A stretch of DNA of 64,000 bases, taken from positions 131,626,001 through 131,690,000 of the forward strand of contig OZ024744.1 in assembly GCA_964016885.1 (NCBI GenBank). The letters run 5' to 3'. Position 1 is the first letter of the stretch. Every line of letters begins with the position of its first letter. The position numbers were made by a program, and so were the translations under genes. Source of the DNA: Eledone cirrhosa. Taxonomy: Eukaryota. Of the stretch, positions 1 through 64,000 are shown one piece after another. A model generated the notes under the pieces. That model was not told where the DNA came from, did not search any database, and saw only the letters and a program-made list of their open reading frames with translations.

Positions 1-1467
1 TTAAGTTAAGTTGGGGTTAAGTTAAATTGGGGGTAAGTTAAGTTGGGGGTAAGTTAAGTTGGGGGCAAGTTAAGTTGGGGTTCAGTTAAGTTGGGGTTAA
101 ATTAAGTTGGGGTTAAGTTTAGTTGGTGTTAAGTTAAGTTGGGGTTTATTTAAGTTGGGGTTAATTAAGTTGGGGTTAAGTTAAGTTGGGGTTAAGTTAA
201 GTTGGGGTTTAGTTAAGTTGGGGTTCAGTTAAGTTGGGGTTAAGTTAAGTTTGGGTTAAGTTGGGGTTAAATTAATTTGGGGTTAAGTTAAGTTGGGGTT
301 TAGTTTAGTTGGGGTTAAGTTAAGTTGGGGTTAATTTAAGTTGGGGTTAATTTAAGTTGCGGGTAATTTAAGTTGGGGTTAAGTTAAGTTGGGGTTAAGT
401 TAGTTGGGGTTAAGTTAAGTTGGGGTTAAGTTAAGTTGGGGTTAAGTTATGTTGGGGGTAAGTTAAGTTGGGGGTAAGTTAAGTTGGGGTTAAGTTAAGT
501 TGGGGTTAAGTTAAGTTAGGGTTAAGTTAAGTTGGGGTTAAGTTAAGTTGGGGTTAAGTTAAATTGGGGTTAAGTTAAGTTGGGGTTGAGTTAAGTTGGG
601 GTTAAGTTAAGTTGGGGTTATGTTAAGTTGGGGTTAAGTTAAGTTGCGGTTAAGTTAAGTTGGGGTTAAGTTGGGGTTAAGTTAAGTGGTGGTTATGTTA
701 AGTTGGGGTTAAGTTAAGTTGGGGTTAATTTAAATTGGGGTTAAGTTAACTTTGTGGTTAAGTTAAGTTGGGGCTAAATTAAGTTGGGGCCAAGTTAAGT
801 TGGGGATAAGTTAAGTTGGGGTTCAGTTAAGTTGGGGTTAAGTTAAGTTTGGGTTAAGTTGGGGTTAAATTAAGTTGGGGTTAAGTTAAGTTGGGGTTTA
901 GTTAAGTTGGGGTTAAGTTAAGTTGGGGTTAATTTAAGTTGGGGTTAAGTTAAGTGGTGGTTATGTTAAGTTGGGGTTAAGTTAAGTTGGGGTTAATTTA
1001 AATTGGGGTTAAGTTAACTTTGTGGTTAAGTTAAGTTGGGGTTAAGTTAAGTTGGGGTTAAGTTAAGTTGGGGTTCAGTTAAGTTGCGGTTAAGTTAAGT
1101 TGCGGTTAAGTTAAGTTGGGGTTAAGTTAAGTTGGGGTTAAGTTAAGTTGGGGTCAAGTTAAGCTGGGGTTAAGTTAAGTTGGGGTTAAGTTAAGTTGGT
1201 TAGTTAAGTTGAGTTTAAGTTAAGCTGGGGTTAATTTAAGTTGGGTTTAAGTTAAGTTGGGGTTAAGTTAAGTTGGGGTTAAGTTAAGTTGGGGTTAAGT
1301 TAATTTGGGGTTCAGTTAAGTTGGGGTTAAGTCAAGTTGGGGTTAAGTTGGGGTTAAATTAATTTGGGGTTAAGTTAAGTTGGGGTTAAGTTAAGTTGGG
1401 GTTAAGTTAAGTTGGGGTTAAGTTAAGTTGGGGTTAAGTTAATTTGTGGTTAAGTTAAGTTGGGGTT

Positions 1468-1893
1468 AACCCCAACTTCACTCAACCCCACCTTAACTCA
1501 ACCCCAACTTAACTTAACCCCAACTTCACTGAACCCCAACTTAACTTAACCCCAACTTCACTCAACCCCAACTTAACTCAACCCCAACTTAACTTAACCC
1601 CAACTTAACTTAACCCAAACTTAACTTAACCCCGACTTAACTTAACTTCGACTTAACTTAATCCCAACTTAACTTAACCCAAACTTAACTTAACCCCAAC
1701 TTAACTTAACCACAAATTAACTTAACCCCAACTTAAATTAACCCCAACTTAAATTAACCCCAACTTAACTTAACCCCAACTTAACTTAACCCCAACTTAA
1801 CTCACACCCAACTTAACTTACCCCCAACTTAACTTAACCCCAACTTAGACTTAACCCAAACTTTACTTAACCCCAACTTAACTTAACCCCAAA
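1468..1893 (-). repeat. Inverted satellite island 1 (426 bp, left-domain type)
   Basis: Strand switch at ggggtt|aacccc (1467/1468) to (CCCCAACTTAACTTAA)n, back at ccccaaa|ttcgggg (1893/1894). Carries cttcgac, ccacaaatt, ctcacaccc, ttagactt, aaactttac. Confidence 0.97.
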
Positions 1894-4800: not shown

Positions 4801-6583
4801 GGTTAAGTTAAGTTGGGGTTGAGTTAAGTTGGGGTTAAGTTAAGTTGGGGTTAAGTTAAGTTGGGGTTAAGTTAAGTTGGGTTTAAGTTAAGTTGGGGTT
4901 TAGTTAAGTTGGGGTTCAGTTAAGTTGGGGTTAAGTTAAGTTTGGGTTAAGTTGGGGTTAAATTAATTTGGGGTTAAGTTAAGTTGGGGTTTAGTTTAGT
5001 TGGGGTTAAGTTAAGTTGGGGTTAATTTAAGTTGGGGTTAAGTTAAGTTGCGGGTAATTTAAGTTGGGATTAAGTTAAGTTGGGGTTAAGTTAAGATGGG
5101 GTTAAGTTAAGTTGGGGTTAAGTTAAGTTGGGGTTAAGTTAAATTGGGGGTAAGTTAAGTTGGGGGTAAGTTAAGTTGGGGGCAAGTTAAGTTGGGGTTC
5201 AGTTAAGTTGGGGTTAAATTAAGTTGGGGTTAAGTTTAGTTGGTGTTAAGTTAAGTTGGGGTTTATTTAAGTTGGGGTTAATTAAGTTGGGGTTAAGTTA
5301 AGTTGGGTTAAGTTAAGTTGGGGTTTAGTTAAGTTGGGGTTCAGTTAAGTTGGGGTTAAGTTAAGTTTGGGTTAAGTTGGGGTTAAATTAATTTGGGGTT
5401 AAGTTAAGTTGGGGTTTAGTTTAGTTGGGGTTAAGTTAAGTTGGGGTTAATTTAAGTTGGGGTTAATTTAAGTTGCGGGTAATTTAAGTTGGGGTTAAGT
5501 TAAGTTGGGGTTAAGTTAGTTGGGGTTAAGTTAAGTTGGGGTTAAGTTAAGTTGGGGTTAAGTTATGTTGGGGGTAAGTTAAGTTGGGGGTAAGTTAAGT
5601 TGGGGTTAAGTTAAGTTGGGGTTAAGTTAAGTTAGGGTTAAGTTAAGTTGGGGTTAAGTTAAGTTGGGGTTAAGTTAAATTGGGGTTAAGTTAAGTTGGG
5701 GTTGAGTTAAGTTGGGGTTAAGTTAAGTTGGGGTTATGTTAAGTTGGGGTTAAGTTAAGTTGCGGTTAAGTTAAGTTGGGGTTAAGTTGGGGTTAAGTTA
5801 AGTGGTGGTTATGTTAAGTTGGGGTTAAGTTAAGTTGGGGTTAATTTAAATTGGGGTTAAGTTAACTTTGTGGTTAAGTTAAGTTGGGGCTAAATTAAGT
5901 TGGGGCCAAGTTAAGTTGGGGCTAAGTTAAGTTGGGGTTCAGTTAAGTTGGGGTTAAGTTAAGTTTGGGTTAAGTTGGGGTTAAATTAAGTTGGGGTTAA
6001 GTTAAGTTGGGGTTTAGTTAAGTTGGGGTTAAGTTAAGTTGGGGTTAATTTAAGTTGGGGTTAAGTTAAGTGGTGGTTATGTTAAGTTGGGGTTAAGTTA
6101 AGTTGGGGTTAATTTACATTGGGGTTAAGTTAACTTTGTGGTTAAGTTAAGTTGGGGTTAAGTTAAGTTGGGGTTAAGTTAAGTTGGGGTTCAGTTAAGT
6201 TGCGGTTAAGTTAAGTTGCGGTTAAGTTAAGTTGGGGTTAAGTTAAGTTGGGGTTAAGTTAAGTTGGGGTCAAGTTAAGCTGGGGTTAAGTTAAGTTGGG
6301 GTTAAGTTAAGTTGGTTAGTTAAGTTGAGTTTAAGTTAAGCTGGGGTTAATTTAAGTTGGGTTTAAGTTAAGTTGGGGTTAAGTTAAGTTGGGGTTAAGT
6401 TAAGTTGGGGTTAAGTTAATTTGGGGTTCAGTTAAGTTGGGGTTAAGTCAAGTTGGGGTTAAGTTGGGGTTAAATTAATTTGGGGTTAAGTTAAGTTGGG
6501 GTTAAGTTAAGTTGGGGTTAAGTTAAGTTGGGGTTAAGTTAAGTTGGGGTTAAGTTAATTTGTGGTTAAGTTAAGTTGGGGTT

Positions 6584-7009
6584 AACCCCAACTTCACTCA
6601 ACCCCACCTTAACTCAACCCCAACTTAACTTAACCCCAACTTCACTCAACCCCAACTTAACTTAACCCCAACTTCACTCAACCCCAACTTAACTCAACCC
6701 CAACTTAACTTAACCCCAACTTAACTTAACCCTAACTTAACTTAACCCCGACTTAATTTAACTTCGACTTAACTTAATCCCAACTTAACTTAACCCCAAC
6801 TTAACTTAACCCCAACTTAACTTAACCACAAATTAACTTAACCCCAACTTAAATTAACCCCAACTTAAATTAACCCCAACTTAACTTAACCCCAACTTAA
6901 CTTAACCCCAACTTAACTCACACCCAACTTAACTTACCCCCAACTTAACTTAACCCCAACTTAGACTTAACCCAAACTTTACTTAACCCCAACTTAACTT
7001 AACCCCAAA
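6584..7009 (-). repeat. Inverted island 2 (426 bp)
   Basis: Same entry and exit junctions and internal variant order as island 1. Confidence 0.97.
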
Positions 7010-10000: not shown

Positions 10001-10154
10001 AGTTAATTTGGGGTTCAGTTAAGTTGGGGTTAAGTCAAGTTGGGGTTAAGTTGGGGTTAAATTAATTTGGGGTTAAGTTAAGTTGGGGTTAAGTTAAGTT
10101 GGGGTTAAGTTAAGTTGGGGTTAAGTTAATTTGTGGTTAAGTTAAGTTGGGGTT

Positions 10155-10580
10155 AACCCCAACTTCACTCAACCCCACCTTAACTCAACCCCAACTTAAC
10201 TTAACCCCAACTTCACTCAACCCCAACTTAACTTAACCCCAACTTCACTCAACCCCAACTTAACTCAACCCCAACTTAACTTAACCCCAACTTAACTTAA
10301 CCCTAACTTAACTTAACCCCGACTTAACTTAACTTCGACTTAACTTAATCCCAACTTAACTTAACCCCAACTTAACTTAACCCCAACTTAACTTAACCAC
10401 AAATTAACTTAACCCCAACTTAAATTAACCCCAACTTAAATTAACCCCAACTTAACTTAACCCCAACTTAACTTAACCCCAACTTAACTCACACCCAACT
10501 TAACTTACCCCCAACTTAACTTAACCCCAACTTAGACTTAACCCAAACTTTACTTAACCCCAACTTAACTTAACCCCAAA
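10155..10580 (-). repeat. Inverted island 3 (426 bp)
   Basis: Same junctions and markers as island 1. Confidence 0.97.
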
Positions 10581-13500
10581 TTCGGGGTTAAGTTAAGTTG
10601 GGGTTAAGTTAAGTTAGGCTTAACTTAAGTTGGGGTTAAGTTAAGTTGGGGGTAAGTTAAGTTCTGGGTAAGTTAAGTTGGGGTTAAGTTAAGTTGGGGT
10701 TAAGTTGGGGTTAATTTAAGTTAGGGTTAAGTTAAGTTGGGGTTGAGTTAAGTTGGGGTTAAGTTAAGTTGGGGTTAAGTTAAGTTGGGGTCAAGTTAAG
10801 TTGGGGTTAAAATTAAGTTGGGGTTAAGTCAAGTTGGGGTTAAGTTAAGTTGGGTTTAATTTAGTTGGGGTTAAGTTAAGTTGGGGCTAAGTTAAGTTGA
10901 GGCTAAGTTAAGTTGGGGCTAAGTTAAGTTGGGGTTAAGTTAAGTTGGGGTTAAGTTAAGTTGGGGTTAATTTAAATTGGGGTTAAGTTAACTTTGTGGT
11001 TAAGTTAAGTTGGGGTTAAGTTAAGTTGGGGCTAAGTTAAGTTGGGGTTAAGTTAAGTTGGGGTTAAGTTAAGTTGGGGTTGAGTTAAGTTGGGGTTGAG
11101 TGAAGTTGGGGTTAATTTAAGTTGGGGTTAAATTAAGTTGGCGTTAAGTTAAGTTGGGGTTGAGTTAAGTTGGGGTTGAGTTAATTTAGGGTTAAGTTAA
11201 GTTGGGGTTAAGTTAAGTTGGGGTTAAGTTAAGTTGGGTTTAAGTTAAATTGGGGTTTAGTTAAGTTGGGGTTCAGTTAAGTTGGGGTTAAGTTAAGTTT
11301 GGGTTAAGTTGGGGTTAAATTAATTTGGGGTTAAGTTAAGTTGGGGTTTAGTTTAGTTGGGGTTAAGTTAAGTTGGGGTTAATTTAAGTTGGGGTTAAGT
11401 TAAGTTGCGGGTAATTTAAGTTGGGATTAAGTTAAGTTGGGGTTAAGTTAAGATGGGGTTAAGTTAAGTTGGGGTTAAGTTAAGTTGGGGTTAAGTTAAA
11501 TTGGGGGTAAGTTAAGTTGGGGGTAAGTTAAGTTGGGGGCAAGTTAAGTTGGGGTTCAGTTAAGTTGGGGTTAAATTAAGTTGGGGTTAAGTTTAGTTGG
11601 TGTTAAGTTAAGTTGGGGTTTATTTAAGTTGGGGTTAATTAAGTTGGGGTTAAGTTAAGTTGGGGTTAAGTTAAGTTGGGGTTTAGTTAAGTTGGGGTTC
11701 AGTTAAGTTGGGGTTAAGTTAAGTTTGGGTTAAGTTGGGGTTAAATTAATTTGGGGTTAAGTTAAGTTGGGGTTTAGTTTAGTTGGGGTTAATATAAGTT
11801 GCGGGTAATTTAAGTTGGGGTTAAGTTAAGTTGGGGTTAAGTTAGTTGGGGTTAAGTTAAGTTGGGGTTAAGTTAAGTTGGGGTTAAGTTATGTTGGGGG
11901 TAAGTTAAGTTGGGGGTAAGTTAAGTTGGGGTTAAGTTAAGTTGGGGTTAAGTTAAGTTAGGGTTAAGTTAAATTGGGGTTAAGTTAAGTTGGGGTTAAG
12001 TTAAATTGGGGTTAAGTTAAGTTGGGGTTGAGTTAAGTTGGGGTTAAGTTAAGTTGGGGTTATGTTAAGTTGGGGTTAAGTTAAGTTGCGGTTAAGTTAA
12101 GTTGGGGTTAAGTTGGGGTTAAGTTAAGTGGTGGTTATGTTAAGTTGGGGTTAAGTTAAGTTGGGGTTAATTTAAATTGGGGTTAAGTTAACTTTGTGGT
12201 TAAGTTAAGTTGGGGCTAAATTATGTTGGGGCCAAGTTAAGTTGGGGCTAAGTTAAGTTGGGGTTCAGTTAAGTTGGGGTTAAGTTAAGTTTGGGTTAAG
12301 TTGGGGTTAAATTAAGTTGGGGTTAAATTAAGTTGGGGTTAAGTTTAGTTGGTGTTAAGTTAAGTTGGGGTTTATTTAAGTTGGGGTTAATTAAGTTGGG
12401 GTTAAGTTAAGTTGGGGTTAAGTTAAGTTGGGGTTAATTTAAGTTGGGGTTGAGTTAAGTTGGGGTTAAGTTAAGTTGGGTTTATATTAAGTTGGGGTTA
12501 AGTTAAGTTGGGGTTAAGTTAAGTTGGGGTTCAGTTAAGTTGCGGTTAAGTTAAGTTGGGGTTAAGTTAAGTTGGGGTTAAGTTAAGTTGGGGTTAAGTT
12601 AAGTTGGTGTTAAGTTAAGTTGGGGCTGAGTTAAGTTGGGGCTGAGTTAAGTTGGGGTTAAGTTAAGTTGGGGTTGAGTTAAGTTGGGGTTAAGTTAAGT
12701 TGGGGTTAAGTTAAGTTGGGGTTAAGTTAAGTTGGGTTTAAGTTAAGTTGGGGTTTAGTTAAGTTGGGGTTCAGTTAAGTTGGGGTTAAGTTAAGTTTGG
12801 GTTAAGTTGGGGTTAAATTAATTTGGGGTTAAGTTAAGTTGGGGTTTAGTTTAGTTGGGGTTAAGTTAAGTTGGGGTTAATTTAAGTTGGGGTTAAGTTA
12901 AGTTGCGGGTAATTTAAGTTGGGATTAAGTTAAGTTGGGGTTAAGTTAAGATGGGGTTAAGTTAAGTTGGGGTTAAGTTAAGTTGGGGTTAAGTTAAATT
13001 GGGGGTAAGTTAAGTTGGGGGTAAGTTAAGTTGGGGGCAAGTTAAGTTGGGGTTCAGTTAAGTTGGGGTTAAATTAAGTTGGGGTTAAGTTTAGTTGGTG
13101 TTAAGTTAAGTTGGGGTTTATTTAAGTTGGGGTTAATTAAGTTGGGGTTAAGTTAAGTTGGGTTAAGTTAAGTTGGGGTTTAGTTAAGTTGGGGTTCAGT
13201 TAAGTTGGGGTTAAGTTAAGTTTGGGTTAAGTTGGGGTTAAATTAATTTGGGGTTAAGTTAAGTTGGGGTTTAGTTTAGTTGGGGTTAAGTTAAGTTGGG
13301 GTTAATTTAAGTTGGGGTTAATTTAAGTTGCGGGTAATTTAAGTTGGGGTTAAGTTAAGTTGGGGTTAAGTTAGTTGGGGTTAAGTTAAGTTGGGGTTAA
13401 GTTAAGTTGGGGTTAAGTTATGTTGGGGGTAAGTTAAGTTGGGGGTAAGTTAAGTTGGGGTTAAGTTAAGTTGGGGTTAAGTTAAGTTAGGGTTAAGTTA

Positions 13501-14438
13501 AGTTGGGGTTAAGTTAAGTTGGGGTTAAGTTAAATTGGGGTTAAGTTAAGTTGGGGTTGAGTTAAGTTGGGGTTAAGTTAAGTTGGGGTTATGTTAAGTT
13601 GGGGTTAAGTTAAGTTGCGGTTAAGTTAAGTTGGGGTTAAGTTGGGGTTAAGTTAAGTGGTGGTTATGTTAAGTTGGGGTTAAGTTAAGTTGGGGTTAAT
13701 TTAAATTGGGGTTAAGTTAACTTTGTGGTTAAGTTAAGTTGGGGCTAAATTAAGTTGGGGCCAAGTTAAGTTGGGGCTAAGTTAAGTTGGGGTTCAGTTA
13801 AGTTGGGGTTAAGTTAAGTTTGGGTTAAGTTGGGGTTAAATTAAGTTGGGGTTAAGTTAAGTTGGGGTTTAGTTAAGTTGGGGTTAAGTTAAGTTGGGGT
13901 TAATTTAAGTTGGGGTTAAGTTAAGTGGTGGTTATGTTAAGTTGGGGTTAAGTTAAGTTGGGGTTAATTTACATTGGGGTTAAGTTAACTTTGTGGTTAA
14001 GTTAAGTTGGGGTTAAGTTAAGTTGGGGTTAAGTTAAGTTGGGGTTCAGTTAAGTTGCGGTTAAGTTAAGTTGCGGTTAAGTTAAGTTGGGGTTAAGTTA
14101 AGTTGGGGTTAAGTTAAGTTGGGGTCAAGTTAAGCTGGGGTTAAGTTAAGTTGGGGTTAAGTTAAGTTGGTTAGTTAAGTTGAGTTTAAGTTAAGCTGGG
14201 GTTAATTTAAGTTGGGTTTAAGTTAAGTTGGGGTTAAGTTAAGTTGGGGTTAAGTTAAGTTGGGGTTAAGTTAATTTGGGGTTCAGTTAAGTTGGGGTTA
14301 AGTCAAGTTGGGGTTAAGTTGGGGTTAAATTAATTTGGGGTTAAGTTAAGTTGGGGTTAAGTTAAGTTGGGGTTAAGTTAAGTTGGGGTTAAGTTAAGTT
14401 GGGGTTAAGTTAATTTGTGGTTAAGTTAAGTTGGGGTT

Positions 14439-14864
14439 AACCCCAACTTCACTCAACCCCACCTTAACTCAACCCCAACTTAACTTAACCCCAACTTCAC
14501 TCAACCCCAACTTAACTTAACCCCAACTTCACTCAACCCCAACTTAACTCAACCCCAACTTAACTTAACCCCAACTTAACTTAACCCTAACTTAACTTAA
14601 CCCCGACTTAATTTAACTTCGACTTAACTTAATCCCAACTTAACTTAACCCCAACTTAACTTAACCCCAACTTAACTTAACCACAAATTAACTTAACCCC
14701 AACTTAAATTAACCCCAACTTAAATTAACCCCAACTTAACTTAACCCCAACTTAACTTAACCCCAACTTAACTCACACCCAACTTAACTTACCCCCAACT
14801 TAACTTAACCCCAACTTAGACTTAACCCAAACTTTACTTAACCCCAACTTAACTTAACCCCAAA
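14439..14864 (-). repeat. Inverted island 4 (426 bp)
   Basis: Same junctions; shares the private gacttaattta variant with island 2 (offset 7,855). Confidence 0.97.
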
Positions 14865-48416: not shown

Positions 48417-49725
48417 TTCGGGGTTAAGTTAAGTTGGGGTTAAGTTAAGTTAGGCTTAACTTAAGTTGGGGTTAAGTTAAGTTAGGGTTAAGTTAAGTTG
48501 GGTTTAAGTTAAGTTGGGGTTAAATTAAGTTGGGGTTAAGTTAAGTTGGGGGTAAATTAAGTTGGGGGCAAGTTAAGTTGGGGTTCAGTTAAGTTGGGGT
48601 TAAATTAAGTTGGGGTTAAGTTTAGTTGGTGTTAAGTTAAGTTGGGGTTAATTTAAGTTGGGGTTGAGTTAAGTTGGGGTTAAGTTAAGTTGGGTTTATA
48701 TTAAGTTGGGGTTAAGTTAAGTTGAGGTTCAGTTAAGTTGCGGTTAAGTTAAGTTGGGGTTAAGTTAAGTTGGGGTTAAGTTAAGTTGGGGTTAAGTTAA
48801 GTTGGTGTTAAGTTAAGTTGGGGCTGAGTTAAGTTGGGGCTGAGTTAAGTTGGGGTTAAGTTAAGTTGGGGTTGAGTTAAGTTGGGGTTAAGTTAAGTTG
48901 GGTTTAAGTTAAGTTGGGGTTAAGTTAAGTTGGGGTTAAGTTAAGTTGGGGTTTAGTTAAGTTGGGGTTCAGTTAAGTTGGGGTTAAGTTAAGTTGGGGT
49001 TAAGTTAAGTTGGGGTTAAGTTAAGTTGGGGTTAAGTTAAGGTAGGGTTAAGTTAAGTTGGGGTTGAGTTAAGTTGGGGTTAAGTTAAGTTGGGGTTATG
49101 TTAAGTTGGGGTTAAGTTAAGTTGCGGTTAAGTTAAGTTGGGGTTAAGTTAAGTTGGGGTTAAGTTAAATTGGGGTTGAGTTAAATTGGGGTTAAGTTAA
49201 GTTGGGGTTAAGTTGGGGTTAAGTTAAGTGGTGGTTATGTTAAGTTGGGGTTAAGTTAAGTTGGGGTTAATTTAAATTGGGGTTAAGTTAACTTTGTGGT
49301 TAAGTTAAGTTGGGGTTAAGTTAAGTTGGGGTTGAGTTAAGTTGGGGTTCAGTTAAGTTGCGGTTAAGTTAAGTTGCGGTTAAGTTAAGTTGGGGTTAAG
49401 TTAAGTTGGGGTTAAGTTAAGTTGGGGTCAAGTTAAGCTGGGGTTAAGTTAAGTTGGGGTTAAGTTAAGTTGGTTAGTTAAGTTGAGTTTAAGTTAAGTT
49501 GGGGTTAATTTAAGTTGGGTTTAAGTTAAGTTGGGGTTAAGTTAAGTTGGGGTTAAGCTAAGTTGGGGTTAAGTTAATTTGGGGTTCAGTTAAGTTGGGG
49601 TTAAGTCAAGTTGGGGTTAAGTTGTGGTTAAATTAATTTGGGGTTAAGTTAAGTTGGGGTTAAGTTAAGTTGGGGTTAAGTTAAGTTGGGGTTAAGTTAA
49701 TTTGTGGTTAAGTTAAGTTGGGGTT

Positions 49726-50118
49726 AACCCCAACTTCACTCAACCCCACCTTAACTCAACCCCAACTTAACTTAACCCCAACTTCACTCAACCCCAACTT
49801 AACTCAACCCCAACTGAACTTAACCCCAACTTAACTTAACCCTAACTTAACTTAACCCCGACTTAACTTAACTTCGACTTAACTTAACCCCAACTTAACT
49901 TAACCCCAACTTAACTTAACCCCAACTTAACTTAACCACAAATTAAGTTAACCCCAACTTAAATTAACCCCAACTTAAATTAACCCCAACTTAACTTAAC
50001 CCCAACTTAACTTAACCCCAACTTAACTCACACCCAACTTAACTTACCCCCAACTTAACTTAACCCCAACTTGACTTAACCCAAACTTAACTTAACCCCA
50101 ACTTAACTTAACCCCAAA
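49726..50118 (-). repeat. Inverted island 14 (393 bp, short type)
   Basis: As island 12. Confidence 0.96.
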
Positions 50119-53100: not shown

Positions 53101-55812
53101 GGCTAAGTTAATTTGGGGCTAAGTTAAGTTGGGGCTAAGTTAAGTTGGGGTTCAGTTAAGTTGGGGTTAAGTTAAGTTTGGGTTAAGTTGGGGTTAAATT
53201 AAGTTGGGGTTAAGTTAAGTTGGGGTTTAGTTAAGTTGGGGTTAAGTTAAGTTGGGGTTAATTTAAGTTGGGGTTAAGTTAAGTTGGTGTTAAGTTAAGT
53301 GGTGGTTATGTTAAGTTGGGGTTAAGTTAAGTTGGGGTTAATTTAAATTGGGGTTAAGTTAACTTTGTGGTTAAGTTAAGTTGGGGTTAAGTTAAGTTGG
53401 GGTTAAGTTAAGTTGGGGTTGAGTTAAGTTGGGGTTGAGTGAAGTTGGGGTTAAGTTAAGTTGGGGTTAATTTATGTTGGGGTTAAGTTAAGTCGGGGTT
53501 AAGTTAAGTTGGGGTTGAGGTAAGTTGGGGTTAATTTAAGTTGGGGCTAAGTTAATTTGTGGTTAAGTTAAGTTGGGGTTAAGTTAAGTTGGGGTTAAGT
53601 TAAGTTGGGGTTGAGTTAAGTTGGGGTTGAGTTAATTTAGGGTTAAGTTAAGTTGGGGTTAAGTTAAGTTGGGTTTAAGTTAAGTTGGGGTTAAATTAAG
53701 TTGGGGTTAAGTTAAGTTGGGGGTAAGTTAAGTTGGGGGCAAGTTAAGTTGGGGTTAAGTTAAGTTGGGGTTAAATTAAGTTGGGGTTAAGTTTACTTGG
53801 TGTTAAGTTAAGTTGGGGTTTATTTAAGTTGGGGTCAACTTAAGTTGGGGTTAAGTTAAGTTGGGGTTAAGTTAAGTTGGTGTTAAGTTAAGTTGGGGCT
53901 AAGTTAAGTTGGGGCTGAGTTAAGTTGGGGCTGAGTTAAGTTGGGGTTAAGTTAAGTTGGGGTTAATTTAAGTTGGGGTTAATTTAAGTTGGGGTTGAGT
54001 TAAGTTGGGGTTAAGTTAAGTTGGGTTTATATTAAGTTGGGGTTAAGTTAAGTTGGGGTTAAGTTAAGTTGGGGTTCAGGTAAGTTGCGGTTAAGTTAAG
54101 TTGGGGTTAAGTTAAGTTGGGATTAAGTTAAGTTGGGGTTAAGTTAAGTTGGGGTTAAGTTAAGTTGGGGTTAAGTTAAGTTGGTGTTAAGTTAAGTTGG
54201 GGCTGAGTTAAGTTGGGGCTGAGTTAAGTTGGGGTTAAGTTAAGTTGGGGTTGAGTTAAGTTGGGGTTCAGTTAAGTTGGGGTTAAGTTAAGTTGGGGTT
54301 AAGTTAAGTTGGGGTTAAGTTAAGTTGGGGTTTAATTAAGTTGGGGTTAAGTAAAGTTTGGGTTAAGTTGGGGTTAAATTAATTTGGGGTTAAGTTAAGT
54401 TGGGGTTTAGTTTAGTTGGGGTTAAGTTAAGTTGGGGTTAATTTAAGTTGGGCTTAAGTTAAGTTGCGGGTAATTTAAGTTGGGGTTAAGTTAAGTTGGG
54501 GTTAAGTTAAGTTGGGGTTAAGTTAAGTTGGGGTTAAGTTAAGTTGGGGTTAAGTTAAGTTGGGTTAAGTTAAGTTGGGGGTAAGTTAAGTTGGGGGTAA
54601 GTTAAGTTGGGGTTAAGTTAAGTTAGGGTTAAGTTAAGTTGGAGTTGAGTTAAGTTGGGGTTAAGTTAAGTTGGAGTTATGTTAAGTTGGGGTTAAGTTA
54701 AGTTGCGGTTAAGTTAAGTTGTGGTTAAGTTAAGTTGGGGTTAAGTTATATTGGGGTTAAGTTAAGTTGGGGTTGATTTAAGTTGGGGTTAAGTTAAGTT
54801 GGGGTTATGTTAAGTTGGGGTTAAGTTAAGTTGCGGTTAAGTTAAGTTGGGGTTAAGTTGGCGTTAAGTTAAGTGGTGGTTATGTTAAGTTGGGGTTAAG
54901 TTAAGTTGGGGGTAAGTTAAGTTGGGGGTAAGTTAAGTTGGGGTTAAGTTAAGTTAGGGTTAAGTTAAGTTGGGGTTGAGTTAAGTTGGGGTTAAGTTAA
55001 GTTGGGGTTATGTTAAGTTGGGGTTAAGTTAAGTTGCGGTTAAGTTAAGTTGGGGTTAAGTTAAGTTGGGGTTAAGTTAAATTGGGGTTAAGTTAAGTTG
55101 GGGTTGAGTTAAGTTGGGGTTAAGTTAAGTTGGGGTTATGTTAAGTTGGGGTTAAGTTGGCGTTAAGTTAAGTGGTGGTTATGTTAAGTTGGGGTTAAGT
55201 TAAGTTGGGGTTAATTTAAATTGGGGTTAAGTTAACTTTGTGGTTAAGTTAAGTTGGGGCTAAATTAAGTTGGGGCTAAGTTAAGTTGGGGCTAAGTTAA
55301 GTTGGGGTTCAGTTAAGTTGGGGTTAAGTTAAGTTTGGGTTAAGTTGGGGTTAAATTAAGTTGGGGTTAAGTTAAGTTGGGGTTTAGTTAAGTTGGGGTT
55401 AAGTTAAGTTGGGGTTAATTTAAGTTGGGGTTAAGTTAAGTTGGGGTTAAGTTAAGTGGTGGTTATGTTAAGTTGGGGTTAAGTTAAGTTGGGGTTAATT
55501 TAAATTGGGGTTAAGTTAACTTTGTGGTTAAGTTAAGTTGGGGTTTAGTTAAGTTGGGGTTAAGTTAAGTTGGGGTTAAGTTAAGTTGGGGTTCAGTTAA
55601 GTTGCGGTCAAGTTAAGATGGGGTTAAGTTAAGTTGGGGTTAAGTTAAGTTGGGGTTAAGTTAATTTGGGGTTCAGTTAAGTTGGGGTTAAGTCAAGTTG
55701 GGGTTAAGTTGGGGTTAAATTAATTTAGGGTTAAGTTAAGTTGGGGTTAAGTTAAGTTGGGGTTAAGTTAAGTTGGGGTTAAGTTAATTTGTGGTTAAGT
55801 TAAGTTGGGGTT

Positions 55813-56237
55813 AACCCCAACTTCACTCAACCCCACCTTAACTCAACCCCAACTGAACTTAACCCCAACTTCACTCAACCCCAACTTAACTTAACCCCAA
55901 CTTCACTCAACCCCAACTTAACTCAACCCCAACTTAACTTAACCCCAACTTAACTTAACCCTAACTTAACTTAACCCCGACTTAACTTAACTTCGACTTA
56001 ACTTAACCCCAACTTAACTTAACCCCAACTTAACTTAACCCCAACTTAACTTAACCACAAATTAACTTAACCCAAACTTAAATTAACCCCAACTTAAATT
56101 AACCCCAACTTAACTTAACCCCAACTTAACTTAACCCCAACTTAACTCACACCCAACTTAACTTACCCCCAACTTAACTTAACCCCAACTTGACTTAACC
56201 CCAACTTAACTTAACCCCAACTTAACTTAAACCCAAA
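55813..56237 (-). repeat. Inverted island 15 (425 bp, long type)
   Basis: As island 7; exit reads acccaaattcgggg (one substitution). Confidence 0.96.
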
Positions 56238-57546
56238 TTCGGGGTTAAGTTAAGTTGGGGTTAAGTTAAGTTAGGCTTAACTTAAGTTGGGGTTAAATTA
56301 AGTTAGGGTTAAGTTAAGTTGGGTTTAAGTTAAGTTGGGGTTAAATTAAGTTGGGGTTAAGTTAAGTTGGGGGTAAATTAAGTTGGGGGCAAGTTAAGTT
56401 GGGGTTCAGTTAAGTTGGGGTTAAATTAAGTTGGGGTTAAGTTTAGTTGGTGTTAAGTTAAGTTGGGGTTAATTTAAGTTGGGGTTGAGTTAAGTTGGGG
56501 TTAAGTTAAGTTGGGTTTATATTAAGTTGGGGTTAAGTTAAGTTGGGGTTCAGTTAAGTTGCGGTTAAGTTAAGTTGGGGTTAAGTTAAGTTGGGGTTAA
56601 GTTAAGTTGGGGTTAAGTTAAGTTGGTGTTAAGTTAAGTTGGGGCTGAGTTAAGTTGGCGCTGAGTTAAGTTGGGGTTAAGTTAAGTTGGGGTTGAGTTA
56701 AGTTGGGGTTAAGTTAAGTTGGGTTTAAGTTAAGTTGGGGTTAAGTTAAGTTGGGGTTAAGTTAAGTTGGGGTTTAGTTAAGTTGGGGTTCAGTTAAGTT
56801 GGGGTTAAGTTAAGTTGGGGTTAAGTTAAGTTGGGGTTAAGTTAAGTTGGGGTTAAGTTAAGGTAGGGTTAAGTTAAGTTGGGGTTGAGTTAAGTTGGGG
56901 TTAAGTTAAGTTGGGGTTATGTTAAGTTGGGGTTAAGTTAAGTTGCGGTTAAGTTAAGTTGGGGTTAAGTTAAGTTGGGGTTAAGTTAAATTGGGGTTGA
57001 GTTAAATTGGGGTTAAGTTAAGTTGGGGTTAAGTTGGGGTTAAGTTAAGTGGTGGTTATGTTAAGTTGGGGTTAAGTTAAGTTGGGGTTAATTTAAATTG
57101 GGGTTAAGTTAACTTTGTGGTTAAGTTAAGTTGGGGTTAAGTTAAGTTGGGGTTGAGTTAAGTTGGGGTTCAGTTAAGTTGCGGTTAAGTTAAGTTGCGG
57201 TTAAGTTAAGTTGGGGTTAAGTTAAGTTGGGGTTAAGTTAAGTTGGGGTCAAGTTAAGCTGGGGTTAAGTTAAGTTGGGGTTAAGTTAAGTTGGTTAGTT
57301 AAGTTGAGTTTAAGTTAAGTTGGGGTTAATTTAAGTTGGGTTTAAGTTAAGTTGGGGTTAAGTTAAGTTGGGGTTAAGCTAAGTTGGGGTTAAGTTAATT
57401 TGGGGTTCAGTTAAGTTGGGGTTAAGTCAAGTTGGGGTTAAGTTGTGGTTAAATTAATTTGGGGTTAAGTTAAGTTGGGGTTAAGTTAAGTTGGGGTTAA
57501 GTTAAGTTGGGGTTAAGTTAATTTGTGGTTAAGTTAAGTTGGGGTT

Positions 57547-57875
57547 AACCCCAACTTCACTCAACCCCACCTTAACTCAACCCCAACTTAACTTAACCCC
57601 AACTTCACTCAACCCCAACTTAACTCAACCCCAACTGAACTTAACCCCAACTTAACTTAACCCTAACTTAACTTAACCCCGACTTAACTTAACCACAAAT
57701 TAAGTTAACCCCAACTTAAATTAACCCCAACTTAAATTAACCCCAACTTAACTTAACCCCAACTTAACTTAACCCCAACTTAACTCACACCCAACTTAAC
57801 TTACCCCCAACTTAACTTAACCCCAACTTGACTTAACCCAAACTTAACTTAACCCCAACTTAACTTAACCCCAAA
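57547..57875 (-). repeat. Inverted island 16 (329 bp, shortest type)
   Basis: 393-bp type minus 64 bp including the cttcgac unit (reads ccccgacttaacttaaccacaaat). Confidence 0.96.
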
Positions 57876-60099
57876 TTCGGGGTTAAGTTAAGTTGGGGTT
57901 AAGTTAAGTTAGGCTTAACTTAAGTTGGGGTTAAGTTAAGTTGGGGGTAAGTTAAGTTCTGGGTAAGTTAAGTTGGGGTTAAGTTGGGGTTAATTTAAGT
58001 TAGGGTTAAGTTAAGTTGGGGTTGAGTTAAGTTGGGGTTAAGTTAAGTTGGGGTTAAGTTAAGTTGGGGTCAAGTTAAGTTGGGGTTAAAATTAAGTTGG
58101 GGTTAAGTCAAGTTGGGGTTAAGTTAAGTTGGGGTTAATTTAGTTGGGGTTAAGTTAAGTTGGGGCTAAGTTAATTTGGGGCTAAGTTAAGTTGGGGCTA
58201 AGTTAAGTTGGGGTTAAGTTAAGTTGGGGTTAAGTTAAGTTGGGGTTAATTTAAATTGGGGTTAAGTTAAGTTGGGGTTAAGTTAAGTTGGGGCTAAGTT
58301 AAGTTGGGGTTAAGTTAAGTTGGGGTTAAGTTAAGTTGGGGTTGAGTTAAGTTGGGGTTGAGTGAAGTTGGGGTTAAGTTAAGTTGGCGTTAAGTTAAGT
58401 TGGGGTTGAGTTAAGTTGGGGTTGAGTTAATTTAGGGTTAAGTTAAGTTGGGGTTAAGTTAAGTTGGGTTTAAGTTAAGTTGGGGTTAAATTAAGTTGGG
58501 GTTAAATTAAGTTGGGGTTAAGTTAAGTTGGGGGTAAGTTAAGTTGGGGTTAAGTTAAGTTGGGGTTCAGTTAAGTTAGGGTTAAGTTAAGTTTGGGTTA
58601 AGTTGGGGTTAAATTAAGTTGGGGTTAAGTTAAGTTGGGGTTTAGTTAAGTTGGAGTTAAGTTAAGTTGGGGTTAATTTAAGTTGGGGTTAAGTTAAGTT
58701 GGTGTTAAGTTAAGTGGTGGTTATGTTAAGTTGGGGTTAAGTTAAGTTGGGGTTAATTTAAATTGGGGTTAAGTTAACTTTGTGGTTAAGTTAAGTTGGG
58801 GTTAAGTTAAGTTGGGGTTAAGTTAAGTTGGGGTTGAGTTAAGTTGGGGTTGAGTGAAGTTGGGGTTAAGTTAAGTTGGGGTTAATTTAAGTTGGGGTTA
58901 AGTTAAGTCGGGGTTAAGTTAAGTTGGGGTTGAGTTAAGTTGGTGTTAATTTAAGTTGGGGCTAAGTTAATTTGTGGTTAAGTTAAGTTGGGGTTAAGTT
59001 AAGTTGGGGTTAAGTTAAGTTGGGGTTGAGTTAAGTTGGGGTTAAGTTAAGTTGGGGTTATGTTAAGTTGGGGTTAAGTTAAGTTGCGGTTAAGTTAAGT
59101 TGGGGTTAAGTTGGCGTTAAGTTAAGTGGTGGTTATGTTAAGTTGGGGTTAAGTTAAGTTGGGGGTAAGTTAAGTTGGGGGTAAGTTAAGTTGGGGTTAA
59201 GTTAAGTTAGGGTTAAGTTAAGTTGGGGTTGAGTTAAGTTGGGGTTAAGTTAAGTTGGGGTTATGTTAAGTTGGGGTTAAGTTAAGTTGCGGTTAAGTTA
59301 AGCTGGGGTTAAGTTAAGTTGGGGTTAAGTTAAATTGGGGTTAAGTTAAGTTGGGGTTGAGTTAAGTTGGGGTTAAGTTAAGTTGGGGTTATGTTAAGTT
59401 GGGGTTAAGTTAAGTTGGGGTTAATTTAAATTGGGGTTAAGTTAACTTTGTGGTTAAGTTAAGTTGGGGCTAAATTAAGTTGGGGCTAAGTTAAGTTGGG
59501 GCTAAGTTAAGTTGGGGTTCAGTTAAGTTGGGGTTAAGTTAAGTTTGGGTTAAGTTGGGGTTAAATTAAGTTGGGGTTAAGTTAAGTTGGGGTTTAGTTA
59601 AGTTGGGGTTAAGTTAAGTTGGGGTTAATTTAAGTTGGGGTTAAGTTAAGTTGGGGTTAAGTTAAGTGGTGGTTATGTTAAGTTGGGGTTAAGTTAAGTT
59701 GGGGTTAATTTAAATTGGGGTTAAGTTAACTTTGTGGTTAAGTTAAGTTGGGGTTCAGTTAAGTTGGGGTTAAGTTAAGTTGGGGTTCAGTTAAGTTGCG
59801 GTCAAGTTAAGCTGGGGTTAAGTTAAGTTGGGGTTAAGTTAAGTTGGTTAGTTAAGTTGCGTTTAAGTTAAGTTGGGGTTAATTTAAGTTGGGTTTAAGT
59901 TAAGTTGGCGTTAAGTTAAGTTGGGGTTAAGTTAAGTTGGGGTTAAGTTAATTTGGGGTTCAGTTAAGTTGGGGTTAAGTCAAGTTGGGGTTAAGTTGGG
60001 GTTAAATTAATTTAGGGTTAAGTTAAGTTGGGGTTAAGTTAAGTTGGGGTTAAGTTAAGTTGGGGTTAAGTTAATTTGTGGTTAAGTTAAGTTGGGGTT

Positions 60100-60524
60100 A
60101 ACCCCAACTTCACTCAACCCCACCTTAACTCAACCCCAACTGAACTTAACCCCAACTTCACTCAACCCCAACTTAACTTAACCCCAACTTCACTCAACCC
60201 CAACTTAACTCAACCCCAACTTAACTTAACCCCAACTTAACTTAACCCTAACTTAACTTAACCCCGACTTAACTTAACTTCGACTTAACTTAACCCCAAC
60301 TTAACTTAACCCCAACTTAACTTAACCCCAACTTAACTTAACCACAAATTAACTTAACCCAAACTTAAATTAACCCCAACTTAAATTAACCCCAACTTAA
60401 CTTAACCCCAACTTAACTTAACCCCAACTTAACTCACACCCAACTTAACTTACCCCCAACTTAACTTAACCCCAACTTGACTTAACCCCAACTTAACTTA
60501 ACCCCAACTTAACTTAACCCCAAA
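60100..60524 (-). repeat. Inverted island 17 (425 bp, long type)
   Basis: As island 7. Confidence 0.96.
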
Positions 60525-61833
60525 TTCGGGGTTAAGTTAAGTTGGGGTTAAGTTAAGTTAGGCTTAACTTAAGTTGGGGTTAAGTTAAGTTAGGGTTAAG
60601 TTAAGTTGGGTTTAAGTTAAGTTGGGGTTAAATTAAGTTGGGGTTAAGTTAAGTTGGGGGTAAATTAAGTTGGGGGCAAGTTAAGTTGGGGTTCAGTTAA
60701 GTTGGGGTTAAATTAAGTTGGGGTTAAGTTTAGTTGGTGTTAAGTTAAGTTGGGGTTAATTTAAGTTGGGGTTGAGTTAAGTTGGGGTTAAGTTAAGTTG
60801 GGTTTATATTAAGTTGGGGTTAAGTTAAGTTGAGGTTCAGTTAAGTTGCGGTTAAGTTAAGTTGGGGTTAAGTTAAGTTGGGGTTAAGTTAAGTTGGGGT
60901 TAAGTTAAGTTGGTGTTAAGTTAAGTTGGGGCTGAGTTAAGTTGGGGCTGAGTTAAGTTGGGGTTAAGTTAAGTTGGGGTTGAGTTAAGTTGGGGTTAAG
61001 TTAAGTTGGGTTTAAGTTAAGTTGGGGTTAAGTTAAGTTGGGGTTAAGTTAAGTTGGGGTTTAGTTAAGTTGGGGTTCAGTTAAGTTGGGGTTAAGTTAA
61101 GTTGGGGTTAAGTTAAGTTGGGGTTAAGTTAAGTTGGGGTTAAGTTAAGGTAGGGTTAAGTTAAGTTGGGGTTGAGTTAAGTTGGGGTTAAGTTAAGTTG
61201 GGGTTATGTTAAGTTGGGGTTAAGTTAAGTTGCGGTTAAGTTAAGTTGGGGTTAAGTTAAGTTGGGGTTAAGTTAAATTGGGGTTGAGTTAAATTGGGGT
61301 TAAGTTAAGTTGGGGTTAAGTTGGGGTTAAGTTAAGTGGTGGTTATGTTAAGTTGGGGTTAAGTTAAGTTGGGGTTAATTTAAATTGGGGTTAAGTTAAC
61401 TTTGTGGTTAAGTTAAGTTGGGGTTAAGTTAAGTTGGGGTTGAGTTAAGTTGGGGTTCAGTTAAGTTGCGGTTAAGTTAAGTTGCGGTTAAGTTAAGTTG
61501 GGGTTAAGTTAAGTTGGGGTTAAGTTAAGTTGGGGTCAAGTTAAGCTGGGGTTAAGTTAAGTTGGGGTTAAGTTAAGTTGGTTAGTTAAGTTGAGTTTAA
61601 GTTAAGTTGGGGTTAATTTAAGTTGGGTTTAAGTTAAGTTGGGGTTAAGTTAAGTTGGGGTTAAGCTAAGTTGGGGTTAAGTTAATTTGGGGTTCAGTTA
61701 AGTTGGGGTTAAGTCAAGTTGGGGTTAAGTTGTGGTTAAATTAATTTGGGGTTAAGTTAAGTTGGGGTTAAGTTAAGTTGGGGTTAAGTTAAGTTGGGGT
61801 TAAGTTAATTTGTGGTTAAGTTAAGTTGGGGTT

Positions 61834-62162
61834 AACCCCAACTTCACTCAACCCCACCTTAACTCAACCCCAACTTAACTTAACCCCAACTTCACTCAAC
61901 CCCAACTTAACTCAACCCCAACTGAACTTAACCCCAACTTAACTTAACCCTAACTTAACTTAACCCCGACTTAACTTAACCACAAATTAAGTTAACCCCA
62001 ACTTAAATTAACCCCAACTTAAATTAACCCCAACTTAACTTAACCCCAACTTAACTTAACCCCAACTTAACTCACACCCAACTTAACTTACCCCCAACTT
62101 AACTTAACCCCAACTTGACTTAACCCAAACTTAACTTAACCCCAACTTAACTTAACCCCAAA
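61834..62162 (-). repeat. Inverted island 18 (329 bp, shortest type)
   Basis: Same 64-bp deletion as island 16. Confidence 0.96.
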
Positions 62163-64000
62163 TTCGGGGTTAAGTTAAGTTGGGGTTAAGTTAAGTTAGG
62201 CTTAACTTAAGTTGGGGTTAAGTTAAGTTGGGGGTAAGTTAAGTTCTGGGTAAGTTAAGTTGGGGTTAAGTTGGGGTTAATTTAAGTTAGGGTTAAGTTA
62301 AGTTGGGGTTGAGTTAAGTTGGGGTTAAGTTAAGTTGGGGTTAAGTTAAGTTGGGGTCAAGTTAAGTTGGGGTTAAAATTAAGTTGGGGTTAAGTCAAGT
62401 TGGGGTTAAGTTAAGTTGGGGTTAATTTAGTTGGGGTTAAGTTAAGTTGGGGCTAAGTTAATTTGGGGCTAAGTTAAGTTGGGGCTAAGTTAAGTTGGGG
62501 TTAAGTTAAGTTGGGGTTAAGTTAAGTTGGGGTTAATTTAAATTGGGGTTAAGTTAACTTTGTGGTTAAGTTAAGTTGGGGTTAAGTTAAGTTGGGGCTA
62601 AGTTAAGTTGGGGTTAAGTTAAGTTGGGGTTAAGTTAAGTTGGGGTTGAGTTAAGTTGGGGTTGAGTGAAGTTGGGGTTAAGTTAAGTTGGCGTTAAGTT
62701 AAGTTGGGGTTGAGTTAAGTTGGGGTTGAGTTAATTTAGGGTTAAGTTAAGTTGGGGTTAAGTTAAGTTGGGTTTAAGTTAAGTTGGGGTTAAATTAAGT
62801 TGGGGTTAAATTAAGTTGGGGTTAAGTTAAGTTGGGGGTAAGTTAAGTTGGGGTTAAGTTAAGTTGGGGTTCAGTTAAGTTAGGGTTAAGTTAAGTTTGG
62901 GTTAAGTTGGGGTTAAATTAAGTTGGGGTTAAGTTAAGTTGGGGTTTAGTTAAGTTGGAGTTAAGTTAAGTTGGGGTTAATTTAAGTTGGGGTTAAGTTA
63001 AGTTGGTGTTAAGTTAAGTGGTGGTTATGTTAAGTTGGGGTTAAGTTAAGTTGGGGTTAATTTAAATTGGGGTTAAGTTAACTTTGTGGTTAAGTTAAGT
63101 TGGGGTTAAGTTAAGTTGGGGTTAAGTTAAGTTGGGGTTGAGTTAAGTTGGGGTTGAGTGAAGTTGGGGTTAAGTTAAGTTGGGGTTAATTTAAGTTGGG
63201 GTTAAGTTAAGTCGGGGTTAAGTTAAGTTGGGGTTGAGTTAAGTTGGTGTTAATTTAAGTTGGGGCTAAGTTAATTTGTGGTTAAGTTAAGTTGGGGTTA
63301 AGTTAAGTTGGGGTTAAGTTAAGTTGGGGTTGAGTTAAGTTGGGGTTGAGTTAATTTAGGGTTAAGTTAAGTTGGGGTTAAGTTAAGTTGGGTTTAAGTT
63401 AAGTTGGGGTTAAATTAAGTTGGGGTTAAGTTAAGTTGGGGGTAAGTTAAGTTGGGGGCAAGTTAAGTTGGGGTTCAGTTAAGTTGGGGTTAAATTAAGT
63501 TGGGGTTAAGTTTAGTTGGTGTTAAGTTAAGTTGGGGTTTATTTAAGTTGGGGTTAATTAAGTTGGGGTTAAGTTAAGTTGGGGTTAAGTTAAGTTGGGG
63601 TTAATTTAAGTTGGGGTTGAGTTAAGTTGGGGTTAAGTTAAGTTGGGTTTATATTAAGTTGGGGTTAAGTTAAGTTGGGGTTAAGTTAAGTTGGGGTTCA
63701 GTTAAGTTGCGGTTAAGTTAAGTTGGGGTTAAGTTAAGTTGGGGTTAAGTTAAGTTGGGGTTAAGTTAAGTTGGGGTTAAGTTAAGTTGGTGTTAAGTTA
63801 AGTTGGGGCTGAGTTAAGTTGGGGCTGAGTTAAGTTGGGGTTAAGTTAAGTTGGGGTTGAGTTAAGTTGGGGTTAAGTTAAGTTGGGGTTAAGTTAAGTT
63901 GGGGTTAAGTTAAGTTGGGGTCAAGTTAAGCTGGGGTTAAGTTAAGTTGGGGTTAAGCTAAGTTGGGGTTAAGTTAATTTGGGGTTCAGTTAAGTTGGGG

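Follow-up and report, generated by a model that had tools for sequence, protein, structure and literature searches.

The window, the whole 64,000-nt stretch of DNA analysed here, is probably a heterochromatic satellite located elsewhere than at the tip made by telomerase. It is a non-coding array whose 16-bp unit is arranged in kb-scale ordered duplications, with a copied 330–427-bp inversion in each higher-order unit, and it probably grew through out-of-register recombination or break-induced copying. The TTAAGTTAAGTTGGGG array was apparently a satellite with higher-order repeats that is undescribed so far.

TRF reported a single tandem array over positions 1–64000 with a period of 16, 4037 copies (about 4,030) and the consensus TTAAGTTAAGTTGGGG, in agreement with an earlier note on this DNA that had described an array of this 16-mer of at least 64 kb. 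Monomer decomposition gave 4,020 units and left 195 bases of the window unassigned. Most units (3,779) were 16 bp long, 142 had a length of 11 bp and 47 one of 15 bp, and the other 52 were junction units. The 16-bp monomers, of 123 types, showed a mean identity of 94.4% to the consensus (about 5.6% divergence; n = 3,779); 1,498 of them (39.6%) were perfect, and the longest perfect run comprised 4 units. The divergence per 8-kb bin was 0.055–0.058, flat over all eight bins without any purity gradient. The strand asymmetry pointed out in the earlier note was also found, as the plus consensus contained no C, the GC skew was about 0.9 outside the inverted blocks described below, and one polarity covered 88.6% of the window. 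The mean G4Hunter score of 1.125 was inside the range of four listed telomere motifs (0.8–1.82). TTAA occurred at 6,564 sites, with a largest gap between sites of at most 43 bp. The longest stop-free frame in the window had only 54 codons, no Rfam match was obtained, and no second component was detected besides the 16-bp satellite.

Recent changes in the monomers looked neutral: 91 led away from the consensus and 26 towards it, the mutation rate of G was about double that of A or T, and the G-run was not spared. Constraint on the second pentamer was considered, as old variants were skewed (97 versus 27), but is not claimed here because recent variants showed no such skew (26 versus 24).

The order of the monomers was highly repetitive at the kb scale. 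The window was parsed into 536 LZ77 factors, compared with 2,253–2,256 in three monomer shuffles, and its longest exact copy extended over 6,291 bp, compared with at most 109 bp in the same shuffles, confirming the kb-scale, variant-ordered duplications proposed earlier. Higher-order diagonals took in 96% of the 4,020 monomers at 92–98% monomer-type identity, and no diagonal at offsets 1–599 passed in the monomer shuffle. The monomers fell into 220–577 homology classes depending on the threshold, with 279 at the middle threshold, and all 64 kb were derivable from a few kb of diverged monomers. As in satellites with higher-order repeats, non-coding monomers ran head to tail over tens of kb, and multi-monomer blocks were far more alike than adjacent monomers.

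The inversions recorded in the earlier note were identified as 18 blocks with a total of 7,284 bp, or 11.4% of the window (Table 1), separated by forward stretches of 1.2–7.3 kb. The left junction of block 1 was a 22-bp perfect palindrome centred on the TTAA at 1466–1469, and the right junction was centred on AATT near 1892. The left junction was identical over 100 bp in 17 of the 18 blocks. The 18 blocks with one common junction therefore represented one old inversion copied 18 times, that is, all of them descended from a single event, a point that the earlier note had not made. Fold-back was rejected as the origin of the inverted block, whose best forward match had only 6 of 28 variant sites in common. 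An ITS formed by end-to-end fusion has a single head-to-head junction between long arms and lacks a return junction; this candidate was also rejected, as a return junction followed 330–427 bp on from every one of the 18 head-to-head junctions. Copies of the left junction differed by a mean of 0.22 per 80 bp, the lowest value among 23 control anchors (0.22–7.52) and tied by an anchor that overlaps this same junction, while copies of the right junction differed by 1.61 per 80 bp, mid-range among the anchors. This was at most a weak sign of selection on the inversion junction, too weak to claim.

Table 1. Coordinates of the array, the inverted blocks and the main exact copies in the window
Feature	Position	Strand	Remarks
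16-bp unit TTAAGTTAAGTTGGGG array	1..64000	+ (G-rich strand)	continues past both window ends
Inverted block 1	1466..1892	-	427 bp, about 26 monomers
Inverted block 2	6582..7008	-	same sequence as block 4
Inverted block 3	10153..10579	-	same sequence as block 5
Inverted block 4	14437..14863	-	same sequence as block 2
Inverted block 5	18008..18434	-	same sequence as block 3
Inverted block 6	22515..22941	-	
Inverted block 7	30226..30651	-	426 bp; same sequence as blocks 9, 11, 13, 17
Inverted block 8	31960..32321	-	362 bp, short type
Inverted block 9	36232..36657	-	same as block 7; sole copy with 1-base left-flank deletion
Inverted block 10	37822..38183	-	362 bp
Inverted block 11	42095..42520	-	same sequence as block 7
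Inverted block 12	43685..44078	-	394 bp; same sequence as block 14
Inverted block 13	47990..48415	-	same sequence as block 7
Inverted block 14	49724..50117	-	394 bp; same sequence as block 12
Inverted block 15	55811..56230	-	420 bp
Inverted block 16	57545..57874	-	330 bp; same sequence as block 18
Inverted block 17	60098..60523	-	same sequence as block 7
Inverted block 18	61832..62161	-	330 bp; same sequence as block 16
Longest exact duplication, 6,291 bp	11223..17513 = 3368-9658	+	two inversion-bearing units per higher-order period of 7,855 bp
Exact copy, 3,920 bp	38168..42087 = 32306-36225	+	period 5,862 bp
Exact copy, 4,061 bp	44418..48478 = 38523-42583	+	period 5,895 bp
Exact copy, 2,937 bp	59044..61980 = 46936-49872	+	offset 12,108 bp

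It is very improbable that the higher-order pattern and the repeated inversion are assembly artefacts of a simpler array. The exact identity across 6,291, 4,061 and 3,920 bp is consistent with such artefacts, but the 18 blocks represented 10 different sequences, whose differences were nested and alternating, and the junction-to-junction spacing ranged from 1,590 to 7,711 bp; plain mis-joining would not produce such varied blocks and spacings. Furthermore, three runs of one sample, which is maybe the source of the window and not independent of it, contained 0.60–0.63 of the sampled words of positions 1300–6700, where perfect-repeat words accounted for only 0.12 of the query positions. The small word shares of 0.13, 0.10 and 0.06 in three other organisms (B, C and D) carried no evidential weight, and none of the runs listed as containing such words was of RNA. 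That the longest exact copies could partly be assembly products was counted against the satellite interpretation.

The recurrent 11-mer and TTAGGG of the earlier note were indeed present, in 89 exact copies and 92 occurrences, respectively, but the 11-mer was seldom adjacent to itself, and TTAGGG was no commoner than comparable variants. The 11-mer formed only 9 neighbour pairs, whereas 1,000 random placements gave 69 on average and never fewer than 59. TTAGGG corresponded to a G13-to-A change in the 16-mer, counted 115 times versus 137, 134, 164 and 120 times for the other G-run changes. The 11-mers were a few deletions of one pentamer spread by copying, and both variants were a few copied mutations rather than second repeat types. 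Their reading as signs of telomere kinship was therefore not supported. TTAGGTT was absent from both strands of the window, leaving no relic of a TTAGG pentamer; G occupied the two diagnostic unit positions in 6 and 0 of the 3,779 monomers; and no tandems of TTAGG, TTGGGG or the Bombus type were found in the window.

The window has a short unit in tandem and a G-rich strand in common with telomerase-made tracts, but such tracts also keep one orientation and contain long perfect runs that become purer at one end. Telomerase adds in one direction only. The window contained the 18 inverted blocks, and it was not a telomerase-written tract because perfect monomers were few, runs did not exceed 4 units and there was no gradient. 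An active tract made by a sloppy or multi-template telomerase is hardly conceivable and was already contradicted by the observations. The telomere-like unit with its length variants, along with the multiple telomerase RNA paralogues reported for Andrena (10.1101/2025.04.29.651168), would suit such an enzyme. Against it, blocks were reversed in spite of unidirectional synthesis, variants repeated in a fixed kb-long order, there were 123 types of 16-bp monomer, and the neighbour pairs of the 11-mer numbered 9, not about 69. The ordered kb duplications and the copied inversion junction supported the earlier view of a stretch maintained by recombination and not written by telomerase.

The TeloBase motif table did not contain the 16-mer, which the earlier note had not recognised as a described motif, and neither the 16-mer nor its 14-base part was found among the papers listed by a literature text search; a sub-string match in PMC7966213 was an unrelated probe. 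TTAAG did not appear in the main texts of the literature searched, although the supplements of PMC9841428 or a 2022 insect telomere preprint could list a closer motif. TeloBase table S1 (PMC10767889) lists, with no species named, the 16-bp motif TTAGGTTAGGTTCGGG, presumably hymenopteran judging from its place in the list, which has the same 5+5+6 build as TTAAGTTAAGTTGGGG and differs by three substitutions; the earlier note had not mentioned it. The probability of such likeness to listed motifs by chance was 0.001 in a composition-matched and 0.018 in an architecture-matched null, uncorrected for the choice among about 540 motifs. The Bombus motif TTAGGTTGGGG, reported as confirmed by TRAP (PMC9841428), was two events away from the 16-mer, one G-to-A change and one pentamer duplication. 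Insect telomere motifs are given as 1–11 nt in one review (PMC12036569). Short terminal repeats of 16 and 22 bp in the sciarid fly Rhynchosciara may be a further parallel; one review searched made no mention of them.

A 37-base perfect-repeat pattern gave no match in metagenome and viral contigs, and 25 loci (19, 5 and 1) matched a looser 11-bp-doublet pattern without containing the 16-mer; 24 of them held just 2–4 core copies. The remaining one, metagenome contig L001, ended in a 15-bp array with the G strand outward, whose unit was 2–3 edits from the 16-mer and retained TAGG. Only the 4-base spacer of this unit is news because the search pattern forced 11 shared bases. Among the literature matches listed for the unit, none was on repeats by title. 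Comparison of the unique flank (L001:1-1700) with runs X1, X4, X5 and X6 gave only seven pieces of 31–42 bases at below 90% identity and did not establish a link between the contig and the window's organism. The terminal position of the array on this contig and the motif likeness above chance in both nulls were counted against the satellite interpretation.

These likenesses bear on whether the 16-mer is the present telomerase motif of the species, with variant-free 16-mers capping the ends and the window as an old proximal or interstitial derivative of this telomere that was amplified by recombination; we regard this as unlikely. The build common to TTAGGTTAGGTTCGGG, the two events from the Bombus motif, the strong strand asymmetry, the G4Hunter score and the TAGG of the 15-bp array favour this explanation, whereas the missing TTAGGTT, the near absence of the diagnostic G, a purity that does not rise across 64 kb and the motif lengths reported for insects disfavour it, and the 15-bp array was 1 of 25 loci found with a pattern that forced 11 bases. 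Rather unlikely, though a shade easier to entertain, is that TTAAGTTAAGTTGGGG belongs to a family of TTAGG-derived compound motifs as a so far undescribed 16-nt telomere repeat based on TTAAG, with the TAGG 15-mer as an intermediate; the repeat might still be templated by telomerase or might have taken over end maintenance through recombination, and hairpins seeded by the copied 0.4-kb inversion might drive expansion.

Alternatively, telomerase may have been lost and the chromosomes may be capped by the satellite itself through recombination-based extension, a mode put forward for gall wasps and some scarab beetles; this is distinctly unlikely. The structure of the window is what recombination-based extension would leave, and the single polarity of 88.6% of it also agrees with such a role. 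Most long satellite blocks, however, lie away from chromosome ends. Precedents are reported in Cynipoidea, where TERT was missing in 23 genomes and a 62-nt terminal satellite is a candidate (PMC9841428), and in Cetonia aurata, with a terminal satellite of about 64 nt (PMC13023368), but the terminal satellites compared have longer units of 62–111 bp.

For the satellite interpretation, a non-terminal placement is likely; both array ends were outside the window. In the order that we infer, a homogeneous 16-mer array would have formed and then aged through point mutation, one template-switch-like event at a self-complementary TTAA would have set about 26 monomers in reverse, and the resulting 1.6–1.7-kb inversion-bearing unit would have been duplicated, acquired further copies inside it and formed pairs with periods of 4.3, 5.9 and 7.9 kb. 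The odds are about even between two origins of the monomer itself, a compound telomere repeat of the TTAGG type that decayed or slippage from a TTAAG pentamer.

The window resembled the compound insect motifs of Bombus (TTAGGTTGGGG, PMC9841428) and TeloBase (TTAGGTTAGGTTCGGG, PMC10767889) in combining one or more pentamers with a G-rich hexamer and in strand asymmetry. Unlike these, it had TTAAG in place of TTAGG without any TTAGG relic, and was heavily diverged with higher-order copies and inversions. The macro-dyads of TmSat1 and TmSat2 reported in Tribolium madens (PMC13081366) have orientation switches, predicted hairpins and conserved, multiply copied inversion sites, as the window does with its identical left junctions, but their inverted sub-arrays extend over several to tens of kb, are near-symmetric and are built of two satellites that derive from a 110-bp element, whereas the window had short blocks of one satellite. 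Large non-terminal telomere-like blocks to which the window can be likened are also reported as pericentromeric telomere-variant blocks in Cycas (PMC9827991) and as heterochromatic ITS (PMC9693754). The Cycas blocks include TTTAAGG, a G-to-A variant of the same kind as TTAGG to TTAAG, but the canonical motif is still their commonest unit, while the window had no known canonical motif in tandem. In Arabidopsis centromeres, telomere-like satellites with higher-order structure are described to arise (CenTel; 10.64898/2026.05.10.723265), demonstrating that telomere-like motifs can come from satellites and not from telomeres. Telomere-like motifs are amplified in place in higher-order blocks in both cases, although a CenTel unit is a mosaic of about 500 bp made up of CEN178 and telomere islands, accompanied by transposons, and the window had a single component.

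As a satellite, the window would provide a clean record of array evolution in which a single inversion marks the lineage across 18 duplications. Conserved inversion sites, by the account in PMC13081366 confined so far to the Tribolium macro-dyads, can result from the copying of one event. Telomere-motif finders could mistake such an abundant, strand-asymmetric 16-mer for a telomere. Should TTAAGTTAAGTTGGGG turn out to be a telomere motif instead, a TTAAG-based 16-mer would join the known compound motifs of the insect type, and telomere-to-satellite conversion would have a direct example.

The repeat TTAAGTTAAGTTGGGG occupied the whole window as a single tandem array with a period of 16 and 4,037 copies (TRF), as the earlier note had proposed for an array of at least 64 kb. 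The GC content was 37% across the window, and the GC skew was about 0.9 outside the reversed blocks. Dynamic-programming decomposition into monomers gave 4,020 units in total, leaving 195 bases unassigned. The mean identity of the monomers to the consensus was 94.4%, with 1,498 of the 3,779 being perfect, and runs of perfect monomers were limited to 4 units. As the divergence from the consensus was 0.055-0.058 in each of the eight 8-kb bins, the window showed no gradient. The longest stop-free frame had 54 codons, and no Rfam family matched the window.

Location and size of the features in the window and in the matched loci of other collections
Feature	Location	Size or count	Remark
Tandem array	1-64,000	period 16
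16-bp units	window	3,779	123 types
11-bp units	window	142
15-bp units	window	47
Junction units	window	52
Main higher-order period	window left	7,855 bp
Main higher-order period	window middle	5,862-6,039 bp
Main higher-order period	window right	~4,290 bp
Strict alternation of inverted blocks	30226-62161	long, 420-426 bp; short, 330-394 bp
15-bp tandem array	L001:1935-2330	26.6 copies	end of AT-rich metagenome contig
Degenerate 16-bp tandem repeat	L014:1352-1530		consensus TTTAGGGTTAAAGGA-like units
Inverted-repeat-bounded element	L022:2001-2128		Elusimicrobiota assembly; follows apparent tRNA end

The array was built by extensive copying. The LZ77 parse of the window required 536 factors, in contrast to 2,253-2,256 in three monomer shuffles, and the longest exact earlier copy was 6,291 bp, compared to at most 109 bp in the shuffles, confirming the kilobase-scale duplications with ordered variants noticed earlier. 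A set of 127 diagonals, with monomer-type identities of 92-98%, covered 96% of the monomers at least once. Joining of homologous monomer positions resulted in 220-577 classes depending on the threshold (279 at the middle one), indicating that the 64 kb was derived from roughly 3.5-9 kb; no diagonal at offsets of 1-599 passed in the shuffled control. It is very improbable that this higher-order structure arose as an artefact of assembly. Growth of large interstitial telomeric blocks has been attributed to unequal crossing-over, slippage or conversion in the accessible text of PMC9693754.

The inversions were also present, as 18 reversed blocks of 330-427 bp each (7,284 bp in sum) with 10 distinct sequences. 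The left junctions were identical across 100 bp in 17 of the 18 blocks, the other having a one-base deletion, and a 9-base core of the right junction was common to all 18, so the blocks go back to a single inversion event predating the duplications that spread it. The junctions were spaced at 1,590-7,711 bp, and the alternation of long and short blocks from 30 kb on is a second-level repeat of two inversion-bearing units. At the left junction, the self-complementary TTAA within the unit was the centre of a 22-bp perfect palindrome; the right junction formed a near-palindrome around AATT. Calculated from the monomer phases, the two junctions leave either a deficit of 14 bases or a surplus of 2, modulo 16. 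Since the two junctions do not sum to a clean flip, they fit template switching, by which the reversed block would have been placed before the array duplications. Fold-back of the flank was ruled out as the origin of the block, the best forward match sharing 6 of the 28 variant sites. The fold predicted for the strand across the left junction, as single-stranded DNA only, was -354.6 kcal/mol versus -66 for an inversion-free stretch of equal length. The left junction showed 0.22 differences per 80 bp, the lowest among 23 control anchors with a tie at one overlapping anchor, and the right junction was mid-range at 1.61; junction conservation beyond background was weak.

Two hallmarks of a telomerase tract were missing from the window, namely a single orientation and long perfect runs becoming purer towards one end, in line with the earlier statement that telomerase does not write such sequence, and an active tract is extremely improbable. 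The window behaved as a satellite with higher-order repeats in each feature examined. A macro-dyad of the Tribolium type was rejected, the reversed blocks being only 330-427 bp and of one satellite; the satellites of Tribolium madens have conserved inversion sites as well but multi-kilobase, near-symmetric arms, according to the accessible text of PMC13081366. An end-to-end fusion site was rejected as each head-to-head junction has a return junction 330-427 bp on.

The recurrent 11-mer and TTAGGG variants existed in 89 and 92 exact copies, respectively, but were not supported as signs of telomere kinship. The 11-mer formed 9 neighbour pairs against a mean of 69 and a minimum of 59 upon random placement (1,000 draws), and its contexts fell into about four families, indicating that a small number of deletions of a single pentamer had been copied. 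TTAGGG corresponded to a G13-to-A change, counted 115 times and no commoner than the other G-run changes (137, 134, 164 and 120). TTAGGTT was absent from the window, and G occurred at unit position 4 in 6 and at position 9 in none of the 3,779 monomers. The accessible text on Cycas describes pericentromeric blocks carrying a G-to-A telomere variant alongside the canonical motif (PMC9827991). Recent changes within homology classes were directed away from the consensus in 91 cases and towards it in 26; G mutated at about twice the rate of A or T, the G run not being spared, and the two pentamers were hit equally (26 and 24). It is unlikely that the species' own telomerase uses a 16-nt motif of which the window is an aged derivative. 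Old variants were 3.6 times commoner in positions 1-5 (97) than in the identical positions 6-10 (27), which may reflect early copying alone, or else drift or past constraint.

Neither the 16-mer nor the 11-mer was listed among the about 540 motifs, given without species, of the TeloBase table (PMC10767889 supplement), so the 16-mer indeed matches no described motif there. The table includes TTAGGTTGGGG, TTAAG, TTGGGG and the 16-bp TTAGGTTAGGTTCGGG, from which the window unit differs by 3 substitutions. Equal closeness was reached by 2,102 of 2,000,000 composition-matched permutations (0.001) and by 0.018 of 300,000 random 5+5+6 units, both uncorrected for the choice among ~540 motifs. The Bombus motif, confirmed by FISH and TRAP in the accessible text of PMC9841428, is converted to the window unit by one substitution and one pentamer duplication. 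The G4Hunter score was 1.125 for the unit and 0.8-1.82 for four listed motifs; quadruplex patterns with standard loops were absent, 535 matches appeared once loops of up to 12 were allowed, and the quadruplex evidence was neutral on telomere likeness. The 16-mer or its description was not found in the literature searched; subscription papers or supplements may hold a closer motif, and TTAAG was not found in the accessible parts of PMC8977481, PMC13421425, PMC12036569, PMC12134996, PMC13277930, 10.1101/2025.04.29.651168 and 10.1101/2025.05.20.653629.

Three sequencing runs, all from a single sample (organism A) that may be the source, contained a fraction of 0.60-0.63 of the sampled window words. 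A doublet of the 11-bp core, used as the search pattern in three collections, detected 25 loci, all lacking the 16-mer. The array of locus L001 had units of TAGGTTAAGTTGGGG near its inner edge and TAGGTCAAGTTGGGG farther outward, which differ from the window unit by 2 and 3 edits and retain TAGG. It degenerated inward with the G strand facing the contig end, had no long frames in the flank, and may mark a telomere junction, or the edge of a satellite, in a different eukaryote. L001 is a lead only, because the pattern forces 11 bases common to it and the window unit and because repeats are frequent at the ends of short-read contigs. The minus frame of this array can also be read as a pentapeptide repeat. 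The 16-bp repeat of L014 lies near a 27-bp repeat that contains the 11-bp core; the contig is AT-rich and carries simple repeats. Three GC-rich loci (L017, L018 and L022) share small inverted-repeat-bounded elements with the core inside, possibly one short palindromic family unrelated to the window.

Terminal satellites have been proposed where TERT is missing, in the accessible texts of PMC9841428 and PMC13023368; a telomerase-independent terminal satellite is quite improbable for the window. A centromeric satellite of Arabidopsis can give rise to telomere-like domains, as stated in the accessible text of 10.64898/2026.05.10.723265. The window is probably a non-terminal satellite amplified by recombination, and the chances that its 16-bp monomer had a telomeric origin are about even.
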